Source: Candidatus Vecturithrix granuli (GTDB taxonomy: Bacteria > Moduliflexota > Moduliflexia > Moduliflexales > Moduliflexaceae). From it: a stretch of DNA of 51,762 nt. Every line of letters starts with the position of its first letter. Positions within the stretch are counted from its first letter, which is position 1. The position numbers and the translations under genes were made by a program. The stretch spans positions 351,071 through 402,832 of the forward strand of contig DF820466.1 of the NCBI GenBank assembly GCA_000739535.1, in the 5' to 3' direction. This document shows, in pieces, positions 4,007 through 51,733 of this stretch. Under the pieces are notes generated by a model, which saw nothing but the letters and a program-made list of their open reading frames with translations, had not been told where the DNA came from and searched no databases.

Positions 4007-4093
4007 AACTACAAGGATTTCTCATAAGCAAGGATTTTTACCAGTATCAAGCAAAATTTCTGAAAATCCTTGTTTATGAGAAATCCTTGTAGT
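4007..4093. repeat. MITE-like palindromic element, family C (termini AACTACAAGGAT...ATCCTTGTAGT)
   Basis: Seen in sequence as an inverted repeat. Family members are also at 5069-5157, 7481-7655 (carrying a nested family D element), 16831-17018, 18146-18213, 21319-21447, 26953-27026, 43444-43530, 45257-45339 and 50519-50623. CTACAACG-ended variants are at 8950-9237, 24999-25108 and 45057-45127. Confidence 0.8.
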
Positions 4094-4123
4094 GACTTAG
4101 ATGAATTTCTGAATATCTATAAG

Positions 4124-4256
4124 TACAATACTTCGGACAGTTTTGATTCCACCCCCCGCAAGCGGGGGGAAGCGCATCCGAGAGGGGTATGTCCAATTTC
4201 CCCCCGTTGACGGGGGGATAAAGGGGGGTCATACGAAAACTGTTCGAACTATTGTA
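4124..4256. repeat. MITE-like element, family B (termini TACAATACTTCGGACAGTTTT...AAAACTGTTCGAACTATTGTA, with internal C7/G7 hairpins)
   Basis: Seen in sequence. A reverse-orientation copy at 45375-45516 is nested inside a family A element. Confidence 0.8.
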
Positions 4257-4500
4257 TAGTACATAGTAGGGAAATTTTTTCAAGGTGTCAAACAATTCCT
4301 TTACAAAATTGACGAAATATTGTTTACTGTTTTGGGAATTTCAAAAACTTGTTCTCCAAATAAGTAATTATCAATAAGTTTTTTTAGTTTCTCGCAAAGC
4401 CCGCCAAGCTCGAAAAGAATGGATGTTCAAAGGCTTTGCGAGAGAAATCAAACAAATTTATTCATAACTACTTAGCAAGGATGCGAGAAATTCTTGCTTA

Positions 4501-4615
4501 GGTAATGGTTAAATGGGAAGTGATGCGTTCCCTGAGCGAAGTCGAAGGGAACAGTGAGCGGCTCGTTTCGACTTCGCTCAACGAGCGGGCATCACTTCCC
4601 ATTTAACCACTACCC
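4501..4615. repeat. MITE-like element, family A (GGTAGTGGTTAAATGGTAAGTGATG...CATCACTTACCATTTAACCACTACC), flanked by an 8-bp direct repeat CTTGCTTA
   Basis: Seen in sequence as a long imperfect palindrome. Other copies are at 32231-32344 (flanked by CAAATTTG direct repeats), 43164-43278 and 45359-45620 (carrying a nested family B element). Confidence 0.8.
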
Positions 4616-4658
4616 TTGCTTATTCTTTATTCCTGTAGTTTTTTCCAAACAACATTGC

Positions 4659-5039
4659 ATGACAATAATGCTACGCTTAACTCTCGGAGATAAAATTTTG
4701 ATCGGCGGTCTGCTGCTGCTATCGCTCGCCAGCTATCCGCTGCTCAGAACCTTGATGACCGAGGGCAGTCAGGTCCAGATTGAGACCGATGGCAGAATTT
4801 TCCAGGTCGTATCTCTGGATGTTGATCAGACCATAGCTGTCCCTGGCCCGCTTGGCGCAACCTTTGTGGTCATTCATGCCGGCGCGGTGCATGTGTCCGC
4901 CTCGCCGTGCCATAACAAAATCTGCGTGAACACAGGTGAAATTTCTTACGCCGGACAAATGATTGTGTGCGTACCCAATAAAGTGGTCGTCCGCGTCATC
5001 GGCAAACAAGAACTCCCTTATGACGCCGTGACACAGTGA
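4659..5039 (+). CDS. NusG domain II-containing (DUF1312-like) small membrane protein
   Basis: An N-terminal TM helix (ILIGGLLLLSLASYPLL) is followed by VQIETDGRIF...VSASPCHNKICVNTGEISYAGQMIVCVPNKVVVRVIG, which matches the conserved C-x-x-x-ICV...G...VCLP core of NusG_II proteins. The start is placed at the ATG at 4659 because the upstream part of the ORF lies within a MITE. Confidence 0.55.
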   Translation: MTIMLRLTLGDKILIGGLLLLSLASYPLLRTLMTEGSQVQIETDGRIFQVVSLDVDQTIAVPGPLGATFVVIHAGAVHVSASPCHNKICVNTGEISYAGQMIVCVPNKVVVRVIGKQELPYDAVTQ

Positions 5040-5278
5040 AAAGATTTCAGATTTTCCGGCTTTTTTGTGGAACTACAAAGATTGAATTTACAAAGAATTT
5101 GAGATTCATTACAAAATTGGGAATTCAATCCCTTGTAAACTCAATCCTTGTAGTTCCACAAAAAAGCCTTGACTTTCTTCCTGACCCTGCTATAGATCAA
5201 CCGATGTCATGCGAGGAATCAATGTAGGTCGAAACTGAAGTTTCGACCCGGTTACAGGATGAAAAGGAAAGGATTTTT

Positions 5279-6445
5279 ATGCCGGAAGAGCGGACAGCTT
5301 ACGATGTGTTTCTCAGTTTCAACAGCGAAGACCGTGACGCTGTGCGAAAAATTGCGGAATATCTTGCGAAAGAGGTAAAGCTGCATCCCTGGTTCGATGA
5401 ATGGGATCTCAGTCCTGGAGATGAATGGATTGATGGCTTATACCGGGGATTAGAATCATCCGCAGTTTGCGCGATTTTTGTCGGCAAGAATGGTGAAGGT
5501 CCCTGGCAGAGACGAGAAATCAGAGCAGCCCTGATAGAACAAGCAGCACGGTCGGATTTTCGACTTATCCCTGTCCTCCTCCCTGGAACATCAAAACAGC
5601 CGCAATTGCCTCCGTTTTTAAAAGCGTTTATGTGGGTAGATTTGCGACAATATCTCAAGGATCCTGATGGATTGCGTCGTCTTGTCTGCGGGATTCGCGG
5701 CGAACGCCCGGGACGTCCTGTCACCGCCGAGGGCGAACCGGATTTGCGCCTGCACGAAATTGCGGTGGCCTATAATTTCGATTTGAACGAATTTGTGAAC
5801 GATTGTTTAGACGCGCTCTGGGGCAGGCGCGGAATTGTCGGATTTGGCGTGCCCTGCCTGTCGCCTGAATTTCTGAGCAACGTGAGCGAACGCCTGAAAT
5901 ATGAATTGGGACGCCAGAAAGTGCGCGTCAAACCGGCAATTGTGCTGCACCCGCTGTTTACCACTATCGAACAGGCGATTCTGACCGTGAGCCGGCGTTA
6001 CGCGCCGGCCTTGCAGGAAGGCGATGTGTTATTTACCGTGCAAGCAGCGGAAGAAGACGCGGGGCGGCAATTCTGGAACGCCCTGAGCCAGGCTGTGAAC
6101 CCGGCCATCCTGTCTCAACACCGCCTGATCGTTCTCCTGGCGGTCAATCCCGACGCCGGTTTCACGCAAGACATCATCCCGTTAAGCCAGCCGCAATTCA
6201 GAATCGCGGACATGATGCGCTGGGTCGCTCAAATCGTGCGAGCTTGCCAGTGGCCTGAAGAACTGATTGAGGAGTGGACCGACGAATTTCTGGAAGAATG
6301 TCATTGCGAAAATACGCTCCGGATTGATTGGGTCTATGATTATCTGGAAGCCATGTTAGACCTGCTGAGGCAAAAACCGCAACTGTACCAATTTCAGCAA
6401 GAATTATACACAAGGAGACAACGCTATGTCCAGACATCGCTTTGA
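5279..6445 (+). CDS. TIR-domain protein with a ~250-aa C-terminal helical domain (candidate vWA-MoxR-associated effector component)
   Basis: The N-terminal ~135 aa (YDVFLSFNSEDRDAVRKIAEYLAKE...WFDEWDLSPGDEW...VCAIFVGKNGEGPWQRREI...RLIPVLLPG) fit a TIR fold, and they are about 55% identical to the TIR domain of the NACHT protein at 21466. The gene overlaps the downstream ATPase gene by 20 nt. RBS AAAGGAAAGG. Confidence 0.8.
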   Translation: MPEERTAYDVFLSFNSEDRDAVRKIAEYLAKEVKLHPWFDEWDLSPGDEWIDGLYRGLESSAVCAIFVGKNGEGPWQRREIRAALIEQAARSDFRLIPVLLPGTSKQPQLPPFLKAFMWVDLRQYLKDPDGLRRLVCGIRGERPGRPVTAEGEPDLRLHEIAVAYNFDLNEFVNDCLDALWGRRGIVGFGVPCLSPEFLSNVSERLKYELGRQKVRVKPAIVLHPLFTTIEQAILTVSRRYAPALQEGDVLFTVQAAEEDAGRQFWNALSQAVNPAILSQHRLIVLLAVNPDAGFTQDIIPLSQPQFRIADMMRWVAQIVRACQWPEELIEEWTDEFLEECHCENTLRIDWVYDYLEAMLDLLRQKPQLYQFQQELYTRRQRYVQTSL

Positions 6446-7418
6446 TCTGTCGAAAACCTTTGAAAACCGGCAGGATCTGCCGCCCTTTCAGGAGCTTGAG
6501 GACCCGACCGTGCAGCTTGAAGGCGTGCCGCAGGAAAATTGGCCGAAACGCCAGGTGGAACGCGAACCCTATAAAGCCGGCGGCGAACTGATTGAGGCCG
6601 TGAATTTAGCCATGGCTTCAGGCCGGCCCCTGCTGCTGCAAGGCGATCCGGGCTGCGGCAAAACGCGCCTGGCTCATGCGGTGGCGTATGAATTGCAACT
6701 GCCCCTGGAGGAATGTTACATCAAATCCACGACCCGCGCCCAGGATTTGCTCTACACCTACGATGCGGTCAATCGCTTATACGATGCGCAGTTAGGTGCT
6801 GATGGTCCGCGTATCAACAGCATACCCAAATGCCAGCAGATCGCCAATTACATTCGCTTCGGCCCTTTGGGGCGCGCCATTATCCGCGCGCAATATGGCC
6901 GCCGCTCCGTGGTGCTGATTGATGAAATTGACAAGGCGGATCTCGATTTCCCCAACGATCTGCTGCTGGAACTCGACCGCTTGCAATTTCAGGTGGCCGA
7001 AGCGCCGGAAATGCACTACGCCGTGCCGGAAGCTCAGGATAACCTGCGTCCGGTCGTGTTTGTGACCCATAACGAAGAAAAAGCTCTGCCCACCGCTTTT
7101 TTACGGCGCTGTATTTTTCAGTATGTCGAATTTCCCGACAGCGAAGCCGAATTACTGGAAATCCTGGCCGCGCACGACATGACGCACGACGCCTTAAATC
7201 ACGAAGCAGTCAGTGTGATCAGGGAATTTCGTCAGAGAACCGGCTACGAAAAACTGCCGGGCCTGAGCGAATTGCTCGACTGGGTGGGTTATATGCAGAC
7301 CCTTGAACAAGAACAGCCCGAATTGAAGTTAAAAGATAAAGTGCGGAAATTGCCCTTCATCGGCTTCCTGTTCAAACACCAGAGCGACCAGAAACGGGCG
7401 AAAAAGGAATTGTTATGA
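6426..7418 (+). CDS. AAA+ ATPase, MoxR/AAA_5-like
   Basis: Walker A is LLLQGDPGCGKTRLA and Walker B is VVLIDEIDKAD. The size (330 aa) and the position directly upstream of a vWA protein match MoxR-vWA pairs. RBS AGGAGA. The start overlaps the TIR gene. Confidence 0.75.
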   Translation: MSRHRFDLSKTFENRQDLPPFQELEDPTVQLEGVPQENWPKRQVEREPYKAGGELIEAVNLAMASGRPLLLQGDPGCGKTRLAHAVAYELQLPLEECYIKSTTRAQDLLYTYDAVNRLYDAQLGADGPRINSIPKCQQIANYIRFGPLGRAIIRAQYGRRSVVLIDEIDKADLDFPNDLLLELDRLQFQVAEAPEMHYAVPEAQDNLRPVVFVTHNEEKALPTAFLRRCIFQYVEFPDSEAELLEILAAHDMTHDALNHEAVSVIREFRQRTGYEKLPGLSELLDWVGYMQTLEQEQPELKLKDKVRKLPFIGFLFKHQSDQKRAKKELL

Positions 7419-7440
7419 TTATTCAGCCCGCGAAACACGC

Positions 7441-7745
7441 GAAACACGCGAAAAAAAGAAGATTCTTTCGTGAAGTTATGGAACTACAAGGATTGAGTTT
7501 ACAAGGGATGGGTACTGCGTGTATCCGGCGTCTCAGCAATCCCTTGTTCCCTCAATCCTTCTGGTAGTCTCGCCCTACGTGGCGGGTTTATCGGCGCCAT
7601 TCCCGCCGCGTAGGGCGGGACTACTTTTTTACGAAATTATGTAGTAGTTCCACAACTTGCACGGAAGAACCGAAAAATATATTTTTCAACCAAACGTTCA
7701 ATCCGGTTCTTCCTTTTCGTGTGTTTCGCGTGTTTCGCGGGCAGA
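7441..7745. repeat. Composite insertion between the ATPase and vWA genes: a family C MITE (7481-7655) with a family D element (7561-7625) nested near its right end, all bracketed by inverted CGAAACACGCGAAACACGCG repeats (7440-7460 and 7718-7740)
   Basis: Seen in sequence. The family C right terminus GTAGTTCCACA reappears at 7645-7655, after the inserted GGTAGTCTCGCCCTACGTGGCGGG...GGGCGGGACTAC block. Confidence 0.6.
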
Positions 7746-7749
7746 TCGA

Positions 7750-8955
7750 ATGACAACGCCACATTCAACATCAAAGCCGGAAACATATTTTCTGTGGCCC
7801 TTGTTCCAGCAATTGCGCCGGCGCCATTTTCCGCTGGGGCCAGATGATTATGACGCTTTACGCCAGGCAATTCGCGCCGGATTCGGCTGGCGCTCGCGCC
7901 GGGATTTGCGCAATCTCTGTTGTCGCTTATGGGCCAAATCCCGGCAGGAACGGACAACCTTGTTCGAACTGTTCGAACAATACGATGTGCCTGATTGGGA
8001 TGCGACGCCTTTCTTGAGCGCGGGCGCGGCCCAGAAGCGTGAGCCAGGCGCGAGCAAATCTCTTGCTGAGCCGCCGGCCGCGCCAGAGACGCCAACCGGC
8101 GCAGAGAGCGTGCAGATTGTGGCCGAGGCGCGCGGTGATTTGCCGGAAATCATTGCGTCTATTGAGTTCCCGCAGGAGCCGGTGGTCTTGACTCCGCAGT
8201 TGCCGTTAACCTATCGTGAAGTCGCACAGGCCTGGCGGCGTTTACGCCAGCCGGTGCGCACGGGGCCGGCCATTGATCTGGATTTAGACGCCACCATTGC
8301 GCGGCGCTGCCGGTTGGGCATTGCGGCTGAGGTGGTGTTAACGCCGCGCCGCCGTAACACCGCGCGTTTGCTGCTGTTGGTTGACCGCCAGGGTTCGATG
8401 ACGCCTTTTCACGCTCTGAGCGCGGAAGTCTGTCTGGCAATCGAGCAGGCCGGCAATCTAGAACGGGTCGCGTTCTACTATTTTCACGACGTGCCGGCCG
8501 AAGGCGCGGATGAATCGGTGCTGCACGGCTTAGATCAATTGTTTCCGACTTTAGATACGGTGTTTGCGGAGATTGAGCCGTTGCAGACCGGCACGGTCTA
8601 TGCAGATCCGCAGTTGTTACAGCCTCGCGCCCTGGAAGACGTGCTGGCCGAGGCGGCGCAGGGCGCGGCGGTCGTGATTCTAAGCGACGCCGGGGCCGCG
8701 CGCGGCCGTTACGATCTGCTGCGCCTGCTGGATACGGTCGCCTTTCTCAAAGCCTTGCAAAGCTATACGCGCCGCTTTGTGTGGCTGAATCCGCTGCCAC
8801 GCAAATATTGGGCGCACAGCACGGCCGAACAAATCCAGCGTTACGTCCCTATGTTCGCCTTAGATCGCGCCGGCATGTACCGCGCTGTTAACGTGTTGCG
8901 AGGGAAACCTATAACGGATGAAAGAATGGAACGGATGGGAGACTACAACGAATGA
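7750..8955 (+). CDS. von Willebrand factor A (vWA) domain protein, CoxE-like
   Basis: It has a MIDAS-like LLLLVDRQGSM, a later VVILSDAG (hhhhSDG motif) and a C-terminal FVWLNPLP that resembles CoxE-type vWA proteins. It follows the MoxR-like ATPase. The start is set at the first ATG downstream of the MITE (7750); the ORF-track start at 7657 lies inside repeat sequence. Confidence 0.6.
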   Translation: MTTPHSTSKPETYFLWPLFQQLRRRHFPLGPDDYDALRQAIRAGFGWRSRRDLRNLCCRLWAKSRQERTTLFELFEQYDVPDWDATPFLSAGAAQKREPGASKSLAEPPAAPETPTGAESVQIVAEARGDLPEIIASIEFPQEPVVLTPQLPLTYREVAQAWRRLRQPVRTGPAIDLDLDATIARRCRLGIAAEVVLTPRRRNTARLLLLVDRQGSMTPFHALSAEVCLAIEQAGNLERVAFYYFHDVPAEGADESVLHGLDQLFPTLDTVFAEIEPLQTGTVYADPQLLQPRALEDVLAEAAQGAAVVILSDAGAARGRYDLLRLLDTVAFLKALQSYTRRFVWLNPLPRKYWAHSTAEQIQRYVPMFALDRAGMYRAVNVLRGKPITDERMERMGDYNE

Positions 8956-9060
8956 AGGAATAGAACAAATTTGTAAGAGGCACTCATTCTGTTGTCCTAC
9001 AACGAATTGAGAAATGGAACGGATAAAAGACTACTACAGCATTTCGGAAATAAATATACA

Positions 9061-9176
9061 CTGGTAGTCCCGCCCTACGTGGCGGGTTCATCAGCATCAT
9101 TCTACGTGGCGGGTAGTCCCGCCCGACGTGGCGGGTTCATCAGCATCATTCCCGCCGCGCAGGGCGGGGCTACCAG
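9061..9176. repeat. MITE-like element, family D (GGTAGTCCCGCCCTACGTGGCGGG ... CCCGCCGCGCAGGGCGGGGCTACC), with the internal half-site duplicated
   Basis: Seen in sequence. Other members are at 7561-7625 and in the composite array at 25914-26168. Confidence 0.75.
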
Positions 9177-9245
9177 TGTGTACTTTTTAACGAATTTCTT
9201 TTTCAAATTCGTTTCATTTCTTAATTCGTTGTAGTGTTCATATTG

Positions 9246-10709: not shown

Positions 10710-10740
10710 TTTTCTGTTTTTCTGTTTTCTGAAGGGGAGT

Positions 10741-10776
10741 CCAGAGGGGTTTACCCCTCTGGCGAAAAAATTTTTT
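10741..10776. terminator. Hairpin ccagaggggtttacccctctgg followed by an A6T6 tract; a putative bidirectional terminator between the convergent FGE-domain and PIN genes
   Basis: Seen in sequence. Confidence 0.4.
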
Positions 10777-10831
10777 GATATAAATTTACGTTTATTAATT
10801 TAAAAATATTAAGGTTTTTCATCCTTATGCT

Positions 10832-10910
10832 CCCCTGAAAATGTAGCGCGAAACTCCAGTTTCGCGCATGGTTGATCGCCGCGAAACTGGAGTTTCGCGG
10901 TACATCTGAA
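10832..10910. repeat. MITE-like element, family E (two CGCGAAACTCCAGTTTCGCG hairpins)
   Basis: Seen in sequence. A second copy in reverse orientation is at 50401-50484. Confidence 0.75.
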
Positions 10911-10980: not shown

Positions 10981-11388
10981 TTATTGAAAAGGATTGACAA
11001 TTTGCAGTTTTCCTTCAATCCTTTGCTTGTGCTGCATATCTTCTGAATATAAAATACTGCAAGAATTCTCCAGGGCCGAGGCAAGGATCATGCTATCCCA
11101 ATAAGAATAGGCGTATCTTTCAAGCATTGATAATGCCAATTTTATGGAATCCTGAGTAAGCAATGTCACAGTAAACGCCTTGAATAATTCGTCAACAACC
11201 GCACGCAGTTCCGAAACAGTCAGGTTCATTTTTCGATAAAGGACATTTGAAACTTCATTAATCACCTGTGTGCTGATGATACTTTTGCGAGTTCTCACAA
11301 GCTGTTGACATCTTTCCCTTTTATCCGGTTCATCTTCGGAATACAGATAAATAATGATATTCGAATCAATAAACACTTTATCTGGCAT
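10981..11388 (-). CDS. PIN-domain ribonuclease toxin (VapC-like)
   Basis: KVFIDSNIIIYLYSEDEPDKRERCQQL at the N-terminus and YSYWDSMILASAL...LYSED later on place acidic residues where a PIN fold needs them. The start is at Met-38 of the track ORF (11388), giving a 4-nt overlap with the upstream small ORF. Confidence 0.7.
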   Translation of the reverse strand: MPDKVFIDSNIIIYLYSEDEPDKRERCQQLVRTRKSIISTQVINEVSNVLYRKMNLTVSELRAVVDELFKAFTVTLLTQDSIKLALSMLERYAYSYWDSMILASALENSCSILYSEDMQHKQRIEGKLQIVNPFQ

Positions 11389-12604: not shown

Positions 12605-12611
12605 AGCTGTC

Positions 12612-12752
12612 CGGAGTGTCAAAGCTCTGCTTTGACAGCGAAAGCAGAGCTTTCGTACTCCGGGAGCTAACTTTGACAGCGAAAGCAGAGCTTTCGCACT
12701 CCGGGAGCTAACTTTGACAGCGAAAGCAGAGCTTTCGCACTCCGGGAGCTAA
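12612..12752. repeat. Repeat family J: a hairpin-pair element (GTCAAAGCTCTGCTTTGAC / CGAAAGCAGAGCTTTCG) followed by three tandem 41-nt copies
   Basis: Seen in sequence. Related copies lie at 1-35 (cut by the window edge) and at 32375-32423 (a perfect 49-nt palindrome). Confidence 0.75.
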
Positions 12753-16818: not shown

Positions 16819-17129
16819 ACCTGATACTAAGTAACTGCAAGGATTTCTCATAAGAAAAGGATTTCTGAATATTGCCTGAAAACAAATGTTTTGCCACAGT
16901 AAAAGTTCAGACAAATTATTTGTAATCATTAAAATTTTTGAACTTTTGTGTGAAAATAAAACGCGACTATCAGGCAAAAGTCCGGAAATCCTTGCTTATA
17001 AAAAATCTTTGTAGTTACTTACATTGTTACAGTTTGCAGAAATTTTATTAAAAATGACACTGATGTTGCTTGACAGACCGGGCTTTCAAAATATACATGG
17101 CATGACGAAATAACTACAAGGAGGAATCT

Positions 17130-17971: not shown

Positions 17972-18112
17972 CTTTTCGCCGTAGGTGATCCAGTATTGTA
18001 GCAACGAGGGAAGCTCACCCTTCCCTCCTTTCTTTCGCCGTAGGCGATCCGCAACCGCTACGCGGTAGGTATGGAGATGAGGGGGAATGATTGTCGTTGC
18101 TACAATACTTGA
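17972..18112. repeat. MITE-like element, family H (TTTCGCCGTAGGCGATCC...CGCAACCGCTACGCGGTAGG with CAGTATTGTAGCAAC termini)
   Basis: Seen in sequence. A second copy is at 44790-44882. Confidence 0.7.
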
Positions 18113-18229
18113 AGCACTACGTGCTAAATAGTTACGCATACTTGAGGAACTACAAGGATGGCTCATAAGAAGGGGATAAAACATCCTTTTCTTATGAGCC
18201 ATCCTTGTAGTTCTCCACAACAAATACTT

Positions 18230-20905: not shown

Positions 20906-21318
20906 CGGCGGAAATGCAAGCGTTAATCAGCTATCGTGTCGAGCAGGCGGATGAAGCCCTGGATTCCGCTCAATCGTTATTGGAGCGCGGTAACTATCGT
21001 TCTGTGGTCAATCGGGCGTATTATGCCATGTTTTATGTTGTGCTGGCGTTGCTTGCGCCGATGAAACAACAAACCTCCAGACATGCATGGGTCATGACGC
21101 TGTTTGACCGGGATTTCGTCAAAATGGGGGTGTTTGGCAAAGATTTTTCACGTTGGTTGCACGAAGCGTTCAATCTTCGCCAGCGCTCAGATTATCAAGA
21201 ATTGTTTACCGTGCCGGTCGAAGACGCACAAACTGTACTTGAGCATGCTCAGCAGTTTGTGGCGGGCGTGAAAACGCATATCACCTCACAGCTTTCAACG
21301 TCAGACGCTGGGGATTAA
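20902..21318 (+). CDS. HEPN domain protein (MNT-HEPN pair)
   Basis: It is helical and carries an R-x(4-6)-H-like motif region RQRSDYQ. It is translationally coupled to the MNT gene. Confidence 0.7.
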   Translation: MTAEMQALISYRVEQADEALDSAQSLLERGNYRSVVNRAYYAMFYVVLALLAPMKQQTSRHAWVMTLFDRDFVKMGVFGKDFSRWLHEAFNLRQRSDYQELFTVPVEDAQTVLEHAQQFVAGVKTHITSQLSTSDAGD

Positions 21319-21465
21319 GTAACTACAAGAATGAAGAATAAACAAGAATTTTCAGACCGTTGCTGAATAGCAATGTTTGTTTGAAAAAAAGTGCGACTAT
21401 CAGGCAAAAACCAGAAAATCCTTGCTTATAAAAAATCCTTGTAGTTATTTAAGAGACGTGTAAGC

Positions 21466-24400
21466 ATGATGACAGAAAAAACATATCAGGTCTTTCTGAG
21501 TTTTAACAGCCAGGATCGGGAGGCAGTGGAACAGATTGCTCTGTATCTGGCTGACAAGGCCGGGCTTCGTCCCTGGTTCGATCAATGGGAACTGATTCCG
21601 GGAGAACCGTGGACCCGCAATCTGGAACGCGGACTGGCAGCCTCTGCAACCTGCGCCGTGTTTGTCGGCAAGAGCGGCGAAGGCCCCTGGCAAATCCGCG
21701 AAGTCGAAACCGCGCTGCGGCACCAGGTCGAGAACTATGACTTCCGGGTCATTCCCGTGCTCTTGCCGGACGCTCCGCAAAAACCGGCGCTCCCCATGTT
21801 TCTCTCCGGGAATATGTGGGTTGACTTTCGTAAAGCCGGACTTGAAGATGACGACGCGCTCTGGCGGTTAGAATGCGGCATTCGCGGAAAATCGCCGGGA
21901 CGCGGCCGTCCGCAGCCAGCCGAACAAATCCAGGAAGACCAGGGAGAGCACAATCAGATCACGCCCGGATTTGACCCCACGCCTCTGCGCAACGCCTATC
22001 TGCGCTGGCTGCTGGAGCAGAGCAGTCAGCTTTCGCTGGCCGGCATTGACAAAAAAGCGGCCGGCAAAGGCGCGGAAGACCATTTAAATTTGAGCGCGAT
22101 TTATACGGCCCTGCTGACGCTTGAAGCTGAGCATGAGCGCGATCAGAAACCGGGTTTTTTGGAAAAACCCGGTTTCTCGTCCGAGGAAAGATCGCAGCGC
22201 CGCCTGTCGGCCGTGGCCCAACTCAACCGTCACGCCCGGTTAGTGCTCTTAGGCGACCCCGGCAGCGGTAAGAGCACCTTTGTCAATTTTGTGGTTTTAT
22301 GTCTGGCCGGAGAACTCTTATTCCCATCGGAAAATGGGCAAGAACCTGCCGACGGGAAAGAGGTTTACCCGAATCTGAAACTTTTGACCGCGCCGCTGCC
22401 GGATGATGAAGGCAACGATGCAGAGGAACCCCAGCCCTGGGAGCATGGCGCGCTGCTGCCGGTGCGCGTGATTCTGCGCGACTTCGCGGCGCGCGGTCTG
22501 CCGCCGGCCGGGCAGGAGGCTAAAGCCAGACACTTATGGCAGTTCATCGTCAAAGAATTACAGGCGAACATGCTTGGCGACTACGCTCCCTTTCTGCGCC
22601 AGCACTTGCAGAGCACAGGCGGTCTGATGCTGCTGGATGGCCTGGATGAAGTGCCGGAAGCGGACCAGCGCCGCCCGCAGATCAAGCAGGTGGTCGAGGA
22701 TTTCGGCCGCTGCTTTCCGCGCTGCCGTATGCTCGTCACCAGCCGCACCTACGCCTATCAGGAGCAGCACTGGCGCTTGAGCCATTTTGAAGACGTCACG
22801 CTGGCGTCTTTCAGCCAGGGACAAATCCGACGTTTTGTGGAGCGCTGGTACGCCTATATCGGCCGTCTGCGCGGCCTGAGCGCGGAGAATGCGCAGGGAC
22901 GGGCGGAATTGCTCAAGCGGGCGATCCTGAACAGCGACCGGCTCTACAGTCTGGCCGAACGGCCCCTGCTGCTGACGCTCATGGCCAGTCTGCACGCCTG
23001 GCGCGGCGGCAGCCTGCCGGAAAAACGCGAAGAACTGTATAACGATACCGTAGATTTGCTGCTCGACTGGTGGGAAAGTGCGAAAATGGCGACTACCGCC
23101 GATGGCAGTCGCAAGCTTGTGCAGCCCAGCCTGACCGAATTGCTCAATGTGGGCAAAGACTGCGTGCGCACAGCGTTGAATACCCTGGCGTTCCGGGCGC
23201 ACAAAGACCAGCAGCAGCTTCAGGGCACCGCCGATCTTGCCGAAACGGATCTGGTGGCTGAACTGATGGAAGTCAGCCAGAATCCAGACCTGAAGCCCGG
23301 GCGGTTAATTGAGCACCTCCGCGACCGCGCCGGATTGCTGGCGCCGCGCGGGGTCAAGGTCTATACCTTTCCGCACCGCACCTTTCAGGAATATCTGGCC
23401 GCCTGTTATTTGACCGAGGTGCAGGACGAGGACGAGCAATACCCGGAAAATGCCGCCCTTTTAGCGCGCCAGGAACCAAACCGCTGGCGCGAAGTGGCGT
23501 TGCTGGCCGGGGCCAAAGCCGCGCGCGGCAGCGCGCCGACCCTCTGGGCTTTGGCCGACGCCTTGTGTTATCAAGACGTGTCCGACACTTCTGACCTGGC
23601 TGACGCCTGGGGCGCGCTGCTGGCCGGCCAACTTGTAGCGGAAAACGCCGGCCTGCATAAGATCAGTCCACGCAACCAGGCCAAAATCAAGCGCATTTGT
23701 GAGTGGCTGGTCGCTATTGTCACAGAACGTGTTCCCTTCGACTCCGCTCAGGGAACGGGAACGGTCTTGCCGGCCGTGGAACGTGCACTGGCCGGGAACA
23801 TCCTGGCGCAGCTTGGGGACCCGCGTCCGGGCGTGGGCTGTCGCTTCCGTTCCCTGAGCGGAGTCGAAGGGAGCGGAGTCGAAGGGAGCGGAGTCGAAGG
23901 GAGCGGAGTCGAAGGGAGCGGAGTCGAAGGGAGCATGAGGCTGCCGAATATTGAATGGTGTGAGGCGTCGGCCGGGGCATTTATTATGGGCAGTGATGAC
24001 TACAGTGATGAACGTCCGCCGCATCGCGTGACGCTTTCAAGATCCTACGCCCTCAGCCGCTATCCGGTCACCAATGCGCAATATCAGACCTTTGTGACGG
24101 ATGGAGGTTATACGGAGAAATGGCAGACATGCTGGTCAAAAGATGGATGGAAATGGAAAGAAGAGCACGCGAAAACCGGACCAGGGAAATATGGCGGGGA
24201 GTTTGACCTGCCCAATCATCCGGTGATTGTGGTGTGCTGGCATGAGGCTGCCGCATTTTGTCAATGGTTGACGCGCCGTTTGCAGAAAATAGGGGAGTTG
24301 ACGGCGGATCAAGAAATTCGTTTACCGACTGAAGCTGAATGGGAAAAAGCGGCGCGCGGTGCGGATGGCCGCACCTATCCCTGGGGCAATGAGGCGATCA

Positions 24401-24791: not shown

Positions 24792-25211
24792 CTGCGGGCG
24801 AGGCGACAGCCGCCCGCCGCTGCGCGTGCGATAGCCGCGCAGCGCGAAAAATTTTTTTAAGGCCCGGGGAAGAGATTGGTCTGGGAATTCAGCCCCAGGA
24901 ACGCCGGACTATGTTTGGGAAATGACAGGAGAGTTGGAGAACTCCAGGGACAAGAGATAAGAAGAGGATGAGATTGAAGGCACTTTGGCATGGGGGAGAA
25001 CTACAAGAATGGCATGTAAGCAAGAATCAGGGCGCGGCCGGTACAACGAATTAAAGAATAAAACGAATTTCCCCATCTCATTCGTTGATTTCTTTAATTC
25101 GTTGTAGTGGTTCGACTGCTGATATGATAAAGAATTGCCGGTTGACAAAAATCAAGAACAGATATATCATAAACTGTAAACAGATAACATCATGAAACAG
25201 AGGAAGACGGT

Positions 25212-25819: not shown

Positions 25820-25913
25820 CGGTTGACATCAAGATATTGTTGGCAAAATGATCGTATTCATCACACTCGCCTCTTTGGGTTAATTCTTCCGAACAGCCTG
25901 GAACTAGTACATA

Positions 25914-26168
25914 CTTTCGGATATAAGTACACAATGAAATAAATCTGGTAGCCCCGCCCTACGTGGCGGGAATGACTTTCGGATATAAGTACACAATGAA
26001 ATAAATCTGGTAGCCCCGCCCTACGTGGCGGGAATGACGCCGATAAACCCGCCACGTAGGGCGGGACTACCAATAAACTACCAATAAACCCGCCACGTAG
26101 GGCGGGACTACCAATAAACCCGCCACGTAGGGCGGGACTACCAATGTGTATTTATTTCCGAAACGCTG
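25914..26168. repeat. Composite family D array: a duplicated 62-nt left unit and three tandem ~30-nt right units (CCCGCCACGTAGGGCGGGACTACCAATAAA), bounded by the inverted flanks ctttcggatataagtacaca / tgtgtatttatttccgaaacg
   Basis: Seen in sequence. Confidence 0.7.
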
Positions 26169-26170
26169 TA

Positions 26171-26944: not shown

Positions 26945-27031
26945 ATTCGTCTATAACTACAAGAATTGATATATAAGCAAGAATACTCCTCGGAGCGATT
27001 CTTGCTTATATATCAATTCTTGTAGTTTTCT

Positions 27032-30396: not shown

Positions 30397-30637
30397 AACA
30401 AACCCTCCTTGAAGATGTGAGTGAAAATTAGATGAACACAATTACGACCAATGGGCATCCATACTCATTTTCTGGATGCACTTCTCTGGCGAAGGGTAGA
30501 AATGCCCTTTACCAAACAACTTCCGTGTATATTCAATCCGACAGCTTTGTCAAGTGAAAAAATCCTTTCTTCTATGGATATTTGATAGCACCTAAAAACC
30601 GGGTTTCTTCAAGAAACCCGGTTTTTCTATCAGATTA

Positions 30638-32038: not shown

Positions 32039-32230
32039 ACATTTCTCCATGTCAATGAGGCGTGCAAACCTGGGTTTGCCTGATAAATCAGCATTTTGCA
32101 AACTGAAGTTTGCACTCCGGCATGTTCATCTCATGCGTGGTTGTAATTCCTGCTTTAGCAGGAGTAAACGCTTGAAACTGTTGCACGAAATTGTTAAACC
32201 TGTTATCTGCATTATTACCTTACAAATTTG

Positions 32231-32344
32231 GGTAGTGGTTCCATGGTAAGTGATGCCCGCTCGTTGAGCGAAGTCGAAACGAGCCGCTCACCGTTCCCTT
32301 CGACTTCGCTCAGGGAACGCATCACTTACCATGGAACCACTACC
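32231..32344. repeat. Family A MITE copy flanked by 8-bp direct repeats CAAATTTG
   Basis: Seen in sequence. It is adjacent to the family J palindrome at 32375-32423. Confidence 0.8.
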
Positions 32345-32442
32345 CAAATTTGTTGTGATACGTCGAGTTATCCCGGAGTGCGAAAGCTCTGCTTTCGCTG
32401 CAAAAGCAGAGCTTTTGCACTCCTGCCTTCCTGTTGTGAAGG

Positions 32443-35172: not shown

Positions 35173-35479
35173 ACATCCTCCTCCTCTTTTGACAATCCTA
35201 TCCATTCAATGTTCACGTTTGATTGCCTTTTATCGCAATCAGTCTCTCCAATACTCATCCGATCTAATGATATTTTTGAGCTAACATTTCAGAAGGTTCG
35301 AACCTTGTCAATAGAGAATTTATGTCAGATGTGCTGAATGTCGCCTCTCGTCATTGAAAGAAGAAAAGATTCATGTTTTTGTCTTGACGGAGATGGCGAG
35401 CACCCAGGGAAATGGGATAAATTTTCAAAAAACCGGGTTTTTTCAAAAAACCCGGTTTTTCGACTCCTGATGGCTTTTC

Positions 35480-43110: not shown

Positions 43111-43539
43111 TAGCCTTCTCCTTCTGTAAATGGAATTCTCATCCGCGCCTGTTAAAAAAACTGGGTAGTGGTTAAATGGTAAGTGACATCCGCTCGTTGA
43201 GCGAAGTCGAAACGAGCCTGGACGTGTTCCCTTCGACTCCGCTCAGGGAACGCATCACTTACCATTTAACCACTACCCTCTTGTGTTGTTCATCTTTGCC
43301 AGTTTTTCAAGGTGAAATTGTAATATTTTAAGAAATGCTCTATAAAGGAATCTATTTTCTGTCAATTATTTTCTGAAAAAAATTCATGAAATTTTTTATT
43401 TAGTTCTGAAAATATAGATAATAACTACGGAACTAAAGGAATAAAGCTACAGGAATGAGGAATAAACAAGAATAAAATGCCATATCAGCAGAAAGAAACG
43501 ATTCTTGCTTATTCCTCATTCCTGTAGCTTTATTGCTGC

Positions 43540-44594: not shown

Positions 44595-44690
44595 TATCCC
44601 ACCCCGGCCCCTCCCCAAAGGGGAAGGGGAGTGTACAATGGTCCGCTGCTCCCCTCCCCCTTTGGGGAGAGGGCGGGGGTGGGGTCAAAA
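44595..44690. repeat. Palindromic G/C-rich element (ccaccccggcccctccccaaaggggaagggga ... tcccctccccctttggggagagggcgggggtgggg)
   Basis: Seen in sequence. Related arms flank the family G element at 48794-49010. Confidence 0.65.
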
Positions 44691-45358
44691 GTACAAAAAA
44701 ATTATTTATTGTGACTTATTATGAAAAAAAATGAAAAAATGTCAAGAAACTTTATTTGGATTTAAATTTTTGTAACTATTTGCCAGGCTCTTTCGACGTA
44801 GGCGATTCAGTATTGTAGTAAGGGGGAAAGTCCTTCATCCTTTTTCGCCGTAGGCGATTCACAACCGCTGCGCGGTAGGATAAAAGGAGTTGGTGAGGCC
44901 GTCTTTCCTACTGTTAAATTCTTGTAAAACATGCTCGTCTCGACTTCGCTCGACGTGCGGTATTCTGGTCATCGAGTGAAGTCGAGATGACACATATCCA
45001 CAGCCCTGTTCCCAGGAGCGAATTGATCAAATGCCGTGTTTATTTGCAATAATGTTTACTACAACGGATTGAAGAATGGAACGGATTTTAAGAGGAATTC
45101 GTTCCATTCTTCAATCCGTTGTAGTATTTTAAAAAATATTGAACAGAAAGTGCAAAAAATTTTCTGCTATATTTTCTGTTTTTTCTTGACATTTTTTCAG
45201 CATGAAAATCTGACTCATATATCTGGATTAGTGATTCTTTCGTGAAGTTTATGGAAAAACTACATGAATGAGGAATAAACAAGAATAGAACGCTTTACAG
45301 AAAAAAAGGATTCATGCTTATTCTTTATTCATGTAGTTTCAAATGTAGTATAATATTC

Positions 45359-45620
45359 GGTAGTGGTTAAATGCAATAGTTCGGACAGTTTTCGTCTTAC
45401 CCCCCTTTATCCCCCCGTAAACGGGGGGAAACTGGAGAGGGGACGTGTCCTATCTGCTTCCCCCCGCTTGCGGGGGGATTGAGGGGGGTGGAATCAAAAC
45501 TGTCCGAAGTATTGTAAATGCTAAGTGATACTGTTCCCTGAGCGGAGTCGAAGGGAACACGTCCAGGCTCGTTTCGACTTCGCTCAACGAGCGGATGTCA
45601 CTTACCGTTTAACCATTACC
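45359..45620. repeat. Family A MITE carrying a nested family B MITE (45375-45516) with a TAAATG target duplication
   Basis: Seen in sequence. The family A left end GGTAGTGGTTAAATG is interrupted by CAATAGTTCGGACAGTTTT...AAAACTGTCCGAAGTATTG, after which TAAATG repeats and family A resumes to ...CGTTTAACCATTACC. Confidence 0.8.
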
Positions 45621-45653
45621 TAATATTCTATAAAAAACCCTAAGGAGGACGTT

Positions 45654-48791: not shown

Positions 48792-48793
48792 TG

Positions 48794-49010
48794 TTTAGGG
48801 AACCCTTCCCCGGCCCTCCCCGAAGGGGCTGGGCTGTTAAGTTTTGTGGATGTTTGTGTCATCTCGACTCCGCTCGACGTGCGGTGTTCCGGTCATCGAG
48901 CGGAGTCGAGATGGCCGGAACACCGCACGTCGAGCGGAGTCGAGACGCTATATTTTGCGAGAACTTAACAGCCCAGCCTCTTCAGGGAGGGGCGGATAGG
49001 GGGTTTTTAA
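48794..49010. repeat. Composite palindromic element: family G core (CATCTCGACTCCGCTCGACGTGCGG...CCGCACGTCGAGCGGAGTCGAGACG) flanked by inverted G/C-rich arms
   Basis: Seen in sequence. It fills the ygfK-ssnA intergenic gap. A shorter family G copy is at 44934-44990. Confidence 0.7.
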
Positions 49011-49011
49011 C

Positions 49012-50337
49012 ATGATGAAAATTTTACAAAATGCAAGAGTCGTTCATTTTTCTCCCGGCTCGGTGCAGGAGAGTTTAGATATTGTGATTGACGGCAGCGT
49101 GATTAAAGAAGTAGGACAAAATTTAGCGGCGAACTACCCTGACGCGGAGGTCAAAGACCTCAAGGGCGCGATGGTGACGCCCGGTATCGTGTGCAGTCAC
49201 AATCATTTCTATTCCGGGCTGGCGCGGGGCATTATGGCGAATATTAAGCCCAGTCAGGATTTTATTTCGATTCTGCTCAATCTCTGGTGGCGTTTGGATC
49301 GCGCGATTGACAAGGACATTCTGTATTACAGCGGCCTGGTCTGTGTGCTGGAAGCGATTAAAGCCGGCACAACGTCGGTGATCGATCATCACGCCTCGCC
49401 GGCCTTTATCAAAGGTTCGCTCGACGTGCTGCGCCAGGGCTATGAAAAAGCCGGGCTGCGCGGCATTCTCTGTTATGAAACCACCGACCGCAACGGGAAA
49501 GACGGCACAAAAGAGGGTGTAGAGGAAAATATCGAATTCGCCAAAAGCGTGGATAAGGTCAAAGCTGCAGGCAAACGCTATCTGGTCGAAGCCGCGATTG
49601 GCGGACACGCGCCTGTGACCTTAGACGACGACGCACTGCGAATGCTGGCTGAAGCTCTTAAAGAAACCGGACGCGGACTGCACATCCACGTGGCGGAAGA
49701 CCGCTACGATGTGTCTGATTCGCACGGCAAATATCAGAAAGACATCATGCAGCGCATGGCAGATTTCGGTCTGGTGAACGACAAAGGCATCTTCGTACAT
49801 GGCGTGCATCTCGGCGCGGCGGATATCGAGGTTCTCAATCAACATGACGCTTTTCTGGTGCACAACGCCCGTTCCAACATGAACAACAATGTCGGCTATG
49901 CCGAAAAATTGCCGACCGTCAAAAATGTGGCGTTAGGCACCGATGGCATCGGCGTGAACATGTTTGAAGAAGTGAAGTGCGCGTATTTCAAACACAAAGA
50001 CACCGGCGGCGCGTATTGGCCCGGCGATTATCTGCGCTTCTTGCAGAACGGCAACACCATTCTGGAACGCTATTTTGGCGAAAAATACGGCAAAGTTGCC
50101 GCCGGATACAAAGCCGACCTCACGATTTACGATTACGACGCGCCCACGCCGTTGACCGGCGATAATGCAGCCGGGCATTTTGTGTTTGGCATGTCCTCCC
50201 GCGACGTGAAAAGCGTGATGGTGGATGGCGTGATGGTCTATGAAGACCGGCAGTTCCCCTTTGATGTAGCCTCGATCTACGTCCAGGCCCAAAAAGAAGC
50301 TCAACGCCTCTGGCAGCGCATGGATGCGTTGGATTAA
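49012..50337 (+). CDS. ssnA: SsnA-like amidohydrolase (putative aminohydrolase/chlorohydrolase family)
   Basis: It is 441 aa. The N-terminus is MMKILQNARVVHF...GAMVTPGIVCSHNHFYSGLARG, with a metal-binding HxH motif. It is the synteny partner of ygfK. Confidence 0.7.
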   Translation: MMKILQNARVVHFSPGSVQESLDIVIDGSVIKEVGQNLAANYPDAEVKDLKGAMVTPGIVCSHNHFYSGLARGIMANIKPSQDFISILLNLWWRLDRAIDKDILYYSGLVCVLEAIKAGTTSVIDHHASPAFIKGSLDVLRQGYEKAGLRGILCYETTDRNGKDGTKEGVEENIEFAKSVDKVKAAGKRYLVEAAIGGHAPVTLDDDALRMLAEALKETGRGLHIHVAEDRYDVSDSHGKYQKDIMQRMADFGLVNDKGIFVHGVHLGAADIEVLNQHDAFLVHNARSNMNNNVGYAEKLPTVKNVALGTDGIGVNMFEEVKCAYFKHKDTGGAYWPGDYLRFLQNGNTILERYFGEKYGKVAAGYKADLTIYDYDAPTPLTGDNAAGHFVFGMSSRDVKSVMVDGVMVYEDRQFPFDVASIYVQAQKEAQRLWQRMDALD

Positions 50338-50624
50338 AACGGCTAAAGTTGGTAGAAACCGGGTTTTTCCGAAAAAACCCGGTTTCTTACACGCTCAGCC
50401 GAAAATCAGATGTCGCGCGAAACTCCAGTTTCGCGGCTGTCAACGGATGCGCGAAACTGGAGTTTCGCGCGACATTTTCAGGGGAACTTCCATGAGCGTA
50501 GGCTCACCCGATGAAATGAAACTACAAGGATTGCGTGTAGGAAGGATTCTTGACGGCAAATTGGTCGGCGTGACCCCGAACCCTGCCTCTGAGAATCCTT
50601 CCTACACCAAATCCTTGTAGTTTC

Positions 50625-51733
50625 ATGATGACGGGTGAGCCTGCGCTCATGGCATACTGCGTGCACTGTATGGTTTCAGACGTGATGAAGCACCAATATA
50701 GTCATGATCAAATTACTCGGTTCTTCGCCAAAGAGGACTATGATCAACAACAGTATTGGCAGGTCATCAAACCGCTGGTGCGACAACTTGAACAGGATGA
50801 TGGCCTGATCGTCGTGGACGACACCATCGAAGAAAAGCCGTATACCGATGAAAACGACATTGTCTCTTGGCACTATGATCACACGACAGGACAGAACGTC
50901 AAAGGCATCAATATTGTCAACTTTCTGTATCATCGTGACAGTGCCAATGCGCCCGAAGTCTCCCTCCCACTTGCCTATGAAGTCGTCTCCAAGCCTGATG
51001 AGTCCGTCGATCCCAAGACCAACAAGACGAAACGGAAGAGCCGGATCAGCAAAAATACCCTCGTTCGGGATCGGTTAAAAATTTTGTGCAGACAGAACCG
51101 GGTTCGTTTCAAATATGTGGCGTTTGATCGTTGGTTTTCTTCGAAGGAGAATATGGCCATGATCAAGCAAGAACTTAGGAAAGATTTTGTCTGTGCGATC
51201 AAAGCCAATCGGACCGTCGCCCTGTCCGAAACGGACAAGCGTACGGGTAATTTTATGCAGGTCTCAAGCGTCGAGTTCCAACCGACCGAACTCCGGGGGG
51301 CTATTTGAAAGGGATGGATTTCCCAGTCCTGCTGACCAAACACGTCTTTACAAACAAAGATGGAAGCCTGGGCGTATTGTATCTCGTATCCAGTGATACC
51401 GCCTTGACCTATACGCAACTCACGACCCTCTATCACAGACGATGGCACGTCGAAGAGTTTCACAAATCGCTCAAACAAAATGTGGCCTTAGAAAAATCCC
51501 CGACCAGAACCGAAACCACGCAGAAAAATCATATTTTTGCGTCAATGCTAGCGTTCATCAAATTAGAGACGCTGAAAGTTCATTCCCACTTGAATCATTT
51601 TGCCTTAAAAAACCATCTCTATCTGACGGCCCTTCAAACATGTTTCAAAGAACTTAAACTTTTACAACAACAGGCTCAGGCTTCGACTATTCAATTTAAC
51701 TCACTTTACGCAGTAGATAAAAAAGTTCTTTGA
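50625..51733 (+). pseudogene. IS4/IS701-like DDE transposase, N-terminally truncated and split by a frameshift in a G6 homopolymer (51295-51300)
   Basis: Two consecutive ORFs (50625-51308 and 51305-51733) have continuous homology (…DRWFSSKENM… / …YHRRWHVEEFHKSLKQ…). Removing one G from ccgggggg would join them. Confidence 0.65.

Follow-up and report, generated by a model that had tools for sequence, protein, structure and literature searches.

What fills the space between the genes of Candidatus Vecturithrix granuli? This uncultured filamentous bacterium belongs to the candidate phylum KSB3/Modulibacteria. It lives in wastewater, and its genome was binned from an anaerobic bioreactor. The genome paper gives a coding density of 84.3%, and the only repeats it mentions are CRISPR arrays and collapsed rRNA operons. 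The stretch analysed here, called the window below, is 51,762 nucleotides of contig DF820466.1 (assembly GCA_000739535.1, positions 351,071 to 402,832), and most of its intergenic gaps contain short sequences that fold into hairpins. The original prediction was that at least nine distinct families of short palindromic repeats occupy nearly every gap, and that these resemble miniature inverted-repeat transposable elements (MITEs).

The intergenic DNA has quite probably been colonised by several families of small non-coding hairpin repeats, with insertions piling up inside one another. These are of the kind known as repetitive extragenic palindromes (REPs), REP doublets forming hairpins (REPINs) and MITEs. 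REPs and REPINs are imperfect palindromes of 20-40 nt, mostly extragenic and present in many copies, often as inverted dimers that fold into one hairpin, with stems in which changes are compensated (PMC3116915, PMC3733652). The copies in the window lie outside genes far beyond chance, are nested in each other, recur at other loci and in relatives, and also occur in frame inside genes.

The repeats fall into four classes, for which the predicted family letters are kept. REP-type hairpins, usually in inverted dimers, make up D (which has a GTAG tag), E, J and a hairpin with the loop TGAGCGRAGTCGAA that forms the core of A, the units of G and the copies inside genes. C and its variant C2 are long AT-rich perfect palindromes at operon junctions, 0-40 nt from a start or stop. 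B is the one true MITE-like element, and F consists of terminator-shaped hairpins. Most families are REP/REPIN-like rather than classical MITEs.

Repeat density

The window holds about 34 well-supported genes, and 16.6% of it is intergenic. When it is compared with itself by BLAST, repeated bases make up 3449 of the 8579 intergenic nucleotides (40%), against 1200 of the 43183 coding ones (2.8%). A repeat is found in 22 of the 31 gaps. This is most of them, at about 70%, and falls short of nearly every one.

All nine motifs named in the original prediction were recovered at or near the places it gave. There are about 40 sites in all, in agreement with the more than 35 copies expected: four A elements, two of B, about 18 sites of C and C2, ten D units at three loci, two E doublets, five F hairpins, two loci of G, two copies of H and three loci of J. 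Further repeat families at 44602-44678, 48803-49002 and 14944-15206 had been missed. Within the window, copies diverge from each other by 5-30%.

Hairpin axes with at least 14 perfect pairs occur 29 times in the 8.6 kb of intergenic DNA. In 100 dinucleotide shuffles the mean was 0.03 and the maximum 1. For A, B, C, C2, D, E, F, G and J alike, the representative copies have folding z-scores of -5 to -15. Family H, with z = -2.7, is no simple palindrome. No Rfam family matched the window repeats at gathering score. Below that score, the only matches were to generic long-hairpin models of plant and animal microRNAs, and these are meaningless.

Nested elements A and B, and family H

Insertion activity is argued for by nesting, by a target duplication, and by inserts that are absent from a sister homologue. 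The first two of these are found in families A and B.

In family A, outer arms GGTARTGGTTAAATGGNAAGTGATGC (26 nt, beginning GGTAGT) enclose an inverted doublet of two TGAGCGAAGTCGAA-loop hairpins. Copy 1 (4501..4614) is a 114-nt composite palindrome with z = -12.5, and it overlaps the mechanically called GTG start of a NusG_II open reading frame (ORF). The arms of copy 2 (32222..32353, z = -14.8) are 100% complementary over 35 nt and show a concerted change, with TCCATG for TAAATG on one arm and CATGGA for CATTTA on the other. Copy 3 (43154..43287) is recognised by motif match, fold and alignment to the other A copies.

Copy 4 (45359..45620) is split by a B element. An alignment of the four A copies places the B body at 45374-45514, as a 141-nt insert between TAAATG at 45368-45373 and TAAATG at 45515-45520. 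This pair is a 6-bp target duplication. Elements spliced into each other had been predicted, and here B sits inside an arm of A.

The free copy of B (4124..4256) is 133 nt long with z = -8.0. In this family, terminal inverted repeats of 17 nt, TACAATACTTCGGACAG, enclose C6/G6 hairpins, and no other family shows such classical MITE anatomy. Terminal repeats together with a duplication are seen at one of the two copies; the free one at 4124 shows at best TA. This combination is absent in A, C, D, E, F, G, H and J. The term MITE-like can be kept for B only; the others are whole-length palindromes or REP dimers with no visible target duplications.

Both copies of family H are on the plus strand. 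The one at 17974..18112 is a direct repeat of TTTCGCCGTAGGYGATCC with a distant inverted repeat AGTATTGTAGCAAC, and the one at 44791..44879 was found by motif match. The word TACAATACTT is common to H (17991-18112) and to the outer end of the B terminal repeat (4124-4140). The shared word is a hint of kinship between H and B, or of a common recognition end.

Palindromes at operon junctions: families C and C2

C and C2 elements are perfect AT-rich palindromes of 30-60 bp, with an internal direct repeat in each arm. At several operon junctions they lie 3-19 nt behind a stop codon, 0-15 nt ahead of a start codon, or both; they are also present in divergent gaps. The arms are on average 91% alike within an element, compared with 68% between elements. 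Where the arms do not match, the change is an A/G transition, and in at least one element this leaves A-C mismatches on the sense strand. This covariation of arms, seen in C and in copy 2 of A, fits hairpin copying or selection; it fits transposase-bound terminal repeats less well. For REPINs, arm covariation has been argued to be a sign of hairpin copying or selection (PMC3116915).

Several C hairpins follow stop codons: that at 5058..5168 starts 19 nt past the NusG_II stop, a long form with a 90-nt centre (16828..17021) lies 10 nt past the stop of a methyl-accepting chemotaxis protein gene, and another (43437..43537) is 3 nt past the stop of a LacI-family gene. Others precede genes. The hairpin at 3994..4107, with CTACAAGGATT..AAGCAAGGATT arms and z = -12, is 38 nt upstream of the SPFH gene start, and a C fragment at 17112-17121 provides the AAGGAG ahead of the esterase start. 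The copy at 18147..18213 (z = -14.9) overlaps the called start of a periplasmic-binding-protein ORF, as does that at 50490..50652, with 61-nt arms, for the ORF that follows it.

Whole junctions can be taken up in this way. The long form at 21316..21451 occupies the gap between the HEPN and TIR-NACHT genes, ending 15 nt before the ATG, and the hairpin at 26955..27027 (30/30 complementary arms, z = -14.0) occupies the 87-nt junction of two ABC-transporter genes of one operon. The hairpin at 45257..45339 lies in a divergent gap.

The C2 variant has the motif CTACAACGRAT. Its units at 8908..9037 are partly tandem, with a 17-nt period, and encode the last codons and the stop codon (8953-8955) of a VWA gene. 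A C2 hairpin at 45057..45126 has 31-nt arms that are 97% complementary (z = -15). At 25000..25107, downstream of the TIR-NACHT-FGE gene, a C half-element is found with a C2 hairpin. A sister species has C2 hairpins in a different arrangement, just past a 3' flank homologous to that of this gene.

Hairpin dimers and terminator-shaped hairpins: families D, E, J and F

The D unit is GGTAGT-CCCGCC-CTACGT-GGCGGG, and the word of the family is GGTAGYCCCGCC. Variants among the ten units keep complementarity. At 7563..7625 there is a head-to-head dimer of this GTAG-tagged REP, in which GGTAGT is followed by CCCGCC, a 6-nt loop and GGCGGG. A trimer at 9038..9199 lies inside a second palindrome, with TTTCGGAAATAAATATACACT arms. 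The cluster of five units at 25913..26170, between convergent genes, contains 100% identical tandem duplications (62 nt x2 and 30 nt x2.3). Head-to-head dimers are found at 7563-7625, 9063-9174 and 26009-26071, and a dimer folds at -50 kcal/mol (z = -8.9). Two of the three loci are nested in a further palindrome with TTTCGGAAATA arms.

GTAG REPs have been defined as short imperfect palindromes with a stem of 5-13 bp, a loop of 2-20 nt and GTAG at one end, and REP dimers are sometimes found inside other palindromes (PMC3733652). Family D consists of such tagged palindromes and forms inverted dimers that fold. It is like the GTAG-tagged REPs in its tag, its 6-bp GC stem and its head-to-head dimers. 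Unlike them, D dimers have the GGTAG tags of the two units paired with each other, and where a dimer lies inside a longer palindrome, GTAG is not the outer end. Modulibacteria are also not among the phyla with described REPs.

Family E is an inverted doublet of CGCGAAACTSSAGTTTCGCG with asymmetric ends. One 80-nt copy is on the plus strand at 10831..10910, between convergent genes (z = -8.7), and the other has the opposite orientation, on the minus strand at 50406..50485 (z = -9.5). The J hairpin, GGAGTG..GCACTCC, is accompanied by three 41-nt tandem units at 12611..12752 (plus strand), again between convergent genes. A single J hairpin at 32373..32423 (minus strand, z = -7.5) adjoins copy 2 of A, and a repeat match at 1..35 (plus strand) is a copy cut by the start of the window.

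Family F is an A5-CCGGGTTTCTT/AAGAAACCCGG-T5 hairpin, with a stem of 11-15 bp that includes five G-C pairs. Four of its five copies are 10-16 nt, and in one case 20 nt, past a stop codon: 1941..1971 (14 nt downstream of the SPFH stop, z = -6), 30595..30625 (12 nt), 35429..35459 (20 nt, a GH2 gene) and 50354..50385 (16 nt). F combines a GC-containing stem-loop with a T run just past the stop, and so has the shape and the placement of a bidirectional intrinsic terminator. The predicted terminator role is plausible for F only; C is mostly at operon junctions or just upstream of starts, which is no place for a terminator.

Intrinsic terminators can be built from a repeated word, for example from inverted uptake-sequence pairs in Neisseria and Haemophilus. 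F resembles such terminators in its perfect GC-containing stem, in its A5/T5 flanks, in its position after stops and in the reuse of the same stem at several genes. It differs from uptake-sequence terminators in that there is no evidence for an uptake or other role of its word, and in that one copy is inside an ORF. This F-like hairpin, at 22146..22176 on the plus strand, is read in frame as KPGFLEKPGF in a variable linker of the TIR-NACHT-FGE protein. It does not count as a proven insertion, since the linker varies in length in all homologues.

A core hairpin shared by A, G and genes

There are 18 copies of the 12-mer GAGCGRAGTCGA in the window, spread over the core of A, the units of G and an intragenic array. 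It is always the loop of a hairpin, while the stem varies but stays complementary. Because of this shared loop, the A core and G are one family, and nine distinct families is an overcount.

Four stems are present in the window: GTTCCCT/AGGGAAC, GCTCGTT/AACGAGC, CGTC/GACG and GGTCATC/GATGGCC. The geometry is thus a variable stem of 4-8 bp with a conserved loop of 12-14 nt, TGAGCGRAGTCGAA, which is able to hold an inner hairpin. The word of the whole unit is GTTCCCTGAGCGRAGTCGAAGGGAAC. G has two units (loop GAGCGAAGTCGA) at 44936..44989, found by 12-mer match, and three units forming a 36-bp palindrome at 48851..48947 (z = -12.3). The latter is nested between outer arms at 48803-48843 and 48962-49002.

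These arms are one copy of a further GC-rich palindromic family, of CCCCGGCCCCTCCCCAAAGGGG.. type, which is also seen at 44602-44678.

The TIR-NACHT-FGE gene (21466-24741) contains two in-frame core inserts, in opposite orientation around a conserved segment of 26 residues, LPAVERALAGNILAQLGDPRPGVG. The unit at 23727..23763 (minus strand) is read as VPFDSAQGT. The other, at 23842..23934 (plus strand), combines a unit with a 15-nt array (GAGCGGAGTCGAAGG x5.3) and is read as SLSGVEG(SGVEG)4. The inserts are absent from 6/6 homologues of other organisms. The genome also encodes two paralogues, one on a 189-kb and one on a 996-kb contig. Both have core inserts at the same sites with different tandem copy numbers, and the core hairpin is present on at least three contigs of the genome. 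The three insert-bearing paralogues are 53-55% identical. No core inserts are present in the closest homologue from the sister species, which can still be aligned to the window along its 3' flank; its orthology was inferred from this shared flank. Together the alignments indicate a recent gain of the inserts, or their homogenisation.

In-frame palindromes tolerated in protein linkers are also known from the Rickettsia palindromic elements and from REPs, copies of which occasionally lie in frame inside genes (PMC3733652). The case here is unlike the Rickettsia elements in that an inverted pair of inserts surrounds a 26-residue segment, at the same two sites in three paralogues, with differing tandem copy numbers.

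Other hairpin-encoded linker stretches are found in frame in P0126 and P0129, NACHT-FGE homologues of other organisms (alignment columns 330-370 and 805-845). They read LRQAQGER and SVRPEPVEG, and PSQEGN..PPQGGN. The NACHT-FGE protein family seems to tolerate hairpin inserts repeatedly.

Copies beyond the window

The repeats are dispersed, as had been predicted, and are not unique to the window. A 3-kb metagenome contig with an unrelated locus (L125) contains D with its outer palindrome and several C copies, 87-97% identical to those of the window. A contig of the sister species, Vecturithrix sp. (L127), has C2 hairpins and B-like pieces, including one from the B interior. In a more distant relative, a 2.7-Mb contig (L122) has a J-like element and a single C hairpin, the latter placed 15 nt ahead of a start codon. 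Further copies are in the paralogous proteins on two other contigs of the same genome. A metagenome scan for the exact pattern of family D gave four contigs, one of which also holds other window families. The best homologue loci from outside Vecturithrix contain none of the repeat families.

The core hairpin is found far more widely. A scan for the exact 20-mer CCCTGAGCGRAGTCGAAGGG, with one genome per species, gave at least 120 genome stretches, where about 2 are expected by chance. They span more than 15 phyla and have unrelated flanks. Among the matches are Acidobacteriota, Bacteroidota, Chloroflexota, Patescibacteria, Cyanobacteria, Alpha-, Gamma- and Deltaproteobacteria, Verrucomicrobiota, Spirochaetota, Nitrospirota and others. 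These loci also hold copies outside the scanned pattern, in which the loop is unchanged and the complementary stems are different ones. Although the loci are 85% covered by ORFs, 67% of the core hairpins are outside long ORFs, and convergent gaps hold 25 of them to 8 in divergent ones. REPs likewise favour extragenic sites, and convergent over divergent gaps (PMC3733652). A literature search with the core hairpin sequence strings returned nothing relevant.

The CCCCTCCCC..GGGGAGGGG hairpins at 44602-44678 and 48803-49002 do not share this pan-bacterial spread; they occur in 1 of the 120 cross-phylum loci.

One known group of REPs is also spread over distant phyla. The CGTC REPs include dRS3 of Neisseria, RPE-4/6 of Rickettsia and alphaproteobacterial families, and mostly form head-to-head dimers (PMC3733652). 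This superfamily 'lacks a dedicated transposase' (Di Nocera et al. 2013, PMC3733652). The core hairpin resembles it in phylogenetic spread, and in some phyla TGTC or CGTC precedes the TGAGCGRAGTCGAA hairpin. A CGTC REP has a CGTC tag, a stem of 8-9 bp starting with AT, a loop of 4-5 nt and a CCA tail (PMC3733652). The variable stem of 4-8 bp and the conserved 12-14-nt loop rule out that the core hairpin is one of these.

A nuclease gene between hairpins

Is there a gene that travels with the core hairpin? In a plasmid BLAST search the A core matched a Sphingomonas replicon that has a 106-aa GIY-YIG nuclease gene with hairpins on both sides. An inverted hairpin doublet is about 35 nt upstream of the gene, and a reverse unit overlaps its last codons. 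As background, hairpins occupy 8 of about 53 gaps on this replicon. Only one of the 120 cross-phylum loci, itself rich in hairpins, contains a GIY-YIG gene, with forward units upstream and reverse units downstream of the ORF.

An all-against-all BLASTP of the 3454 ORFs of these 120 loci found no family in more than seven loci. There is no recurrent neighbour, and the link to the nuclease therefore rests on gene-centred rather than repeat-centred evidence. Four further GIY-YIG homologues were chosen by protein similarity alone. Two, from two Methylobacterium species, are bracketed by a local variant of the hairpin, CCTCATCCTGAGG..CCTCGAAGGAGG; the two others (L133 and L135) are not. Two more lineages have perfect brackets, TGTCAGGCTGAGCGGAGTCGAAGCC..ORF..GGCTTCGACTCCGCTCAGCCTGACA and GTTCGCCCTGAGCTTGTCGAAG..ORF..CTTCGACAAGCTCAGGGCGAAC. 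In all, bracketed GIY-YIG genes were found in Sphingomonas, the two Methylobacterium species, two Bacteroidota-type contigs and one alphaproteobacterial-type contig. The brackets are at 1440-1960 in L130, 1240-1989 in L057, 1460-1860 in L137 and 1440-1830 in L142, and in the flanks of 601-864 in L132 and L134. The units around the ORFs in L130, L057 and L137 have a loop identical to that of the window copies.

The hairpins also show in the proteins. Among the 120 best GIY-YIG homologues, 53 (44%) have a C-terminal tail that the reverse strand of the hairpin encodes, against 0 of 240 control tails. For 26 of the 120 the tail is an exact reverse-strand translation of the hairpin (LRLRS, FDSAQ, STSLR), and for a further 27 it is a variant. 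The pattern recurs among 150 more diverse representatives of this family of about 12,000 clusters. The genes behave as single resident copies: two exact proteins each have the same neighbours in every sample, and no multi-copy behaviour was seen for these two across samples. In this they are like the REP-associated tyrosine transposases (RAYTs), which are also single residents.

A small GIY-YIG gene of about 100 aa in hairpin brackets resembles a tiny module like an insertion sequence (IS) or a REPtron.

The physical association of the hairpin with GIY-YIG genes is an observation. What it means is more tentative. The TGAGCGRAGTCGAA hairpin could belong to a family of tiny repeats found throughout the bacteria, with a unit of about 400 bp as its master copy, in which a GIY-YIG gene (PF01541, ~100 aa) lies between two inverted hairpin units. 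Single units and doublets would then be gene-less derivatives, made or moved by the nuclease as REPs and REPINs are by RAYTs. We hold this to be possible rather than probable, going by the sequences. On this reading the nuclease would make or move the hairpins, and Ca. V. granuli would carry a gene for one; neither the window nor about 100 kb of related loci contained a GIY-YIG ORF. No published description of a partnership between a GIY-YIG nuclease and a repeat was found. If true, it would give a concrete and biochemically testable candidate for a REP superfamily without a dedicated transposase. Many spurious peptide tails in databases would be accounted for as well.

Weighing the explanations

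Several bacterial repeat systems invite comparison. MITEs such as Correia/NEMIS, Nezha and RUP are short, non-coding and multi-copy, as are the window repeats, and B has their terminal repeats and duplication. The inverted doublet of hairpin units is also MITE-like in resembling an element that has lost its internal gene. Most families in the window are unlike MITEs, having no discrete terminal repeats and no target duplications. C elements in turn differ from REPs, as they are larger, with AT-rich arms of 30-60 bp, and are often placed upstream of genes. The small dispersed repeats (SDRs) of Nostoc are very small modules inserted precisely into other short palindromes, hence their nesting, which is like that seen here (PMC4390886, PMC5861425). 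SDRs were reported from Nostocaceae only (PMC5861425). The comparison of their 21-27-nt modules with the window repeats is one of descriptions only; the host here is no cyanobacterium, and HIP1 occurs once in the window. A mannitol-1-phosphate dehydrogenase from the window matches the Ca. V. granuli protein with 100% identity.

Could all families be classical MITEs, in line with the original prediction, each an internally deleted copy of an autonomous DDE-type IS, moved by cut-and-paste through terminal inverted repeats? This is quite unlikely. B would fit, with its 17-nt terminal repeats and the 6-bp duplication at the copy inside A, and the sister-species contig with C2 and B-like pieces also has DDE_Tnp_1 fragments. 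Apart from B, the elements are palindromes over their whole length or 20-30-nt hairpins in dimers, and show no target duplications. Within an element the two arms co-vary, which transposase-bound terminal repeats do not need, F behaves as a terminator, and the 52-kb window has no transposase. An origin by local duplication in this region, or by metagenome assembly artefact, is barely credible. The genome is indeed a population bin from a bioreactor metagenome, and some arrays are 100% identical tandem copies; yet the same families are on independent contigs of other samples and species (L122, L125, L127) and are encoded in proteins from two further contigs of this genome, and the window copies differ by 5-30%.

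It is also unlikely, if less so, that the hairpins are immobile and kept by the host for their function, either as RNA hairpins at transcript ends or between cistrons (terminators, RNase barriers, translation modulators) or as protein-binding palindromes, and look alike through shared constraints and local duplication. F is found right after stops, and C at several junctions 3-19 nt past a stop or 0-15 nt before a start, a placement that recurs in the distant relative L122. All fold very stably, and REPs elsewhere have been proposed as RNA elements (PMC3733652). What function would leave unexplained is the nesting, the target duplication, the in-frame linker copies that homologues lack, the 100% identical tandem duplications, and the copies in divergent promoter gaps. 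In at least one C element, moreover, the A/G transitions between the arms put A-C mismatches on the sense strand, and there is no Rfam match.

Colonisation by mobile hairpin families is preferred here. Some results weigh against it. Pfam scans of the window ORFs found no mobilising enzyme there, and neither a RAYT nor a GIY-YIG ORF. One target duplication was seen in all, and B has only two window copies. Family D was found on only four metagenome contigs. Neither E, nor J, nor the region 44689-45653 had a meaningful plasmid BLAST match, and these families appear to be lineage-specific. The one orthologous gap recovered (L121) is without a repeat in either genome, and no empty and filled pair was obtained at a strictly orthologous intergenic site. 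The copies in three paralogues could stem from gene conversion rather than separate insertions. F hairpins are absent from the output of a simple terminator consensus scan, probably because their loop is below the 3-nt minimum of that scan.

If the repeats do move, they may spread as single-strand hairpins or as short palindromic DNA, by means of enzymes encoded elsewhere. A Y1 enzyme of the RAYT type, the usual partner of GTAG REPs, could be one such enzyme, and the small GIY-YIG nuclease is a candidate partner for the TGAGCGRAGTCGAA hairpin. Copies would persist where a stable hairpin is harmless or useful, as at transcript ends, between cistrons and in protein linkers.

Such a density of elements had been called unusual for bacteria. 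This is overstated, since REP-rich genomes are described in 8 phyla (PMC3733652), and the weak streamlining selection that was read from it is best treated as conjecture. What is added is a repeat-rich genome from an uncultured candidate phylum, next to the known REP- and MITE-rich bacteria. The kind is known; the phylum had not been described for it.

Annotation and other features of the window

The repeats affect annotation. Called starts lie inside repeats at 4554 (NusG_II), 18158 (periplasmic binding protein), 44688 (LacI-family) and 50625 (a 227-aa ORF), and translation of these genes probably begins further downstream. In the called ORFs, for example, the LacI HTH domain is reached only at residue 45, and that of NusG_II at residue 49. 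With at least four starts and one stop called inside repeats, and hairpin units translated in real proteins (the FDSAQG and SGVEG stretches), such elements matter for gene calling.

The Pfam content of the window includes sugar transporters, isomerases, two-component proteins, TIR/NACHT/FGE-sulfatase proteins, toxin-antitoxin pairs and others. No tRNA genes are present in the 51.8 kb.

The divergent gap between a subtilase and a chemoreceptor gene (14944-15206) has an array of about 10 AATCAGT heptamers. Mirrored by ACTGATT-type repeats, it forms a nested palindrome of 260 nt.

Two ORFs without a Pfam match have internal repeats. In the 741-aa ORF, a tail of about 180 residues (39995-40540) is almost wholly D, E, G, S and N. 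It is encoded by degenerate tandem repeats of 15 nt and 30 nt, and is the source of most of the coding 'repeat' signal. The 257-aa ORF has three in-frame 63-nt tandem repeats (11993-12181), with 79% and 63% identity to the first. They encode a coiled-coil-like sequence (AQ.RTE.RVEELA.AQKELAE).

At 5279-10709, genes for a TIR protein, an AAA ATPase, a VWA protein and a protein with an FGE-sulfatase domain follow in series. The TIR-NACHT-FGE fusion at 21466-24741 is separate from these, and the two TIR N-termini are 72% identical in DNA. This gene content looks like that of STAND or TIR conflict systems. Toxin-antitoxin-type genes are also found among the repeats, namely a PIN-domain protein, a nucleotidyltransferase/HEPN pair and a DUF5615 (Mut7-C-like) protein, at 10981-11499, 20498-21318 and 25490-25819.

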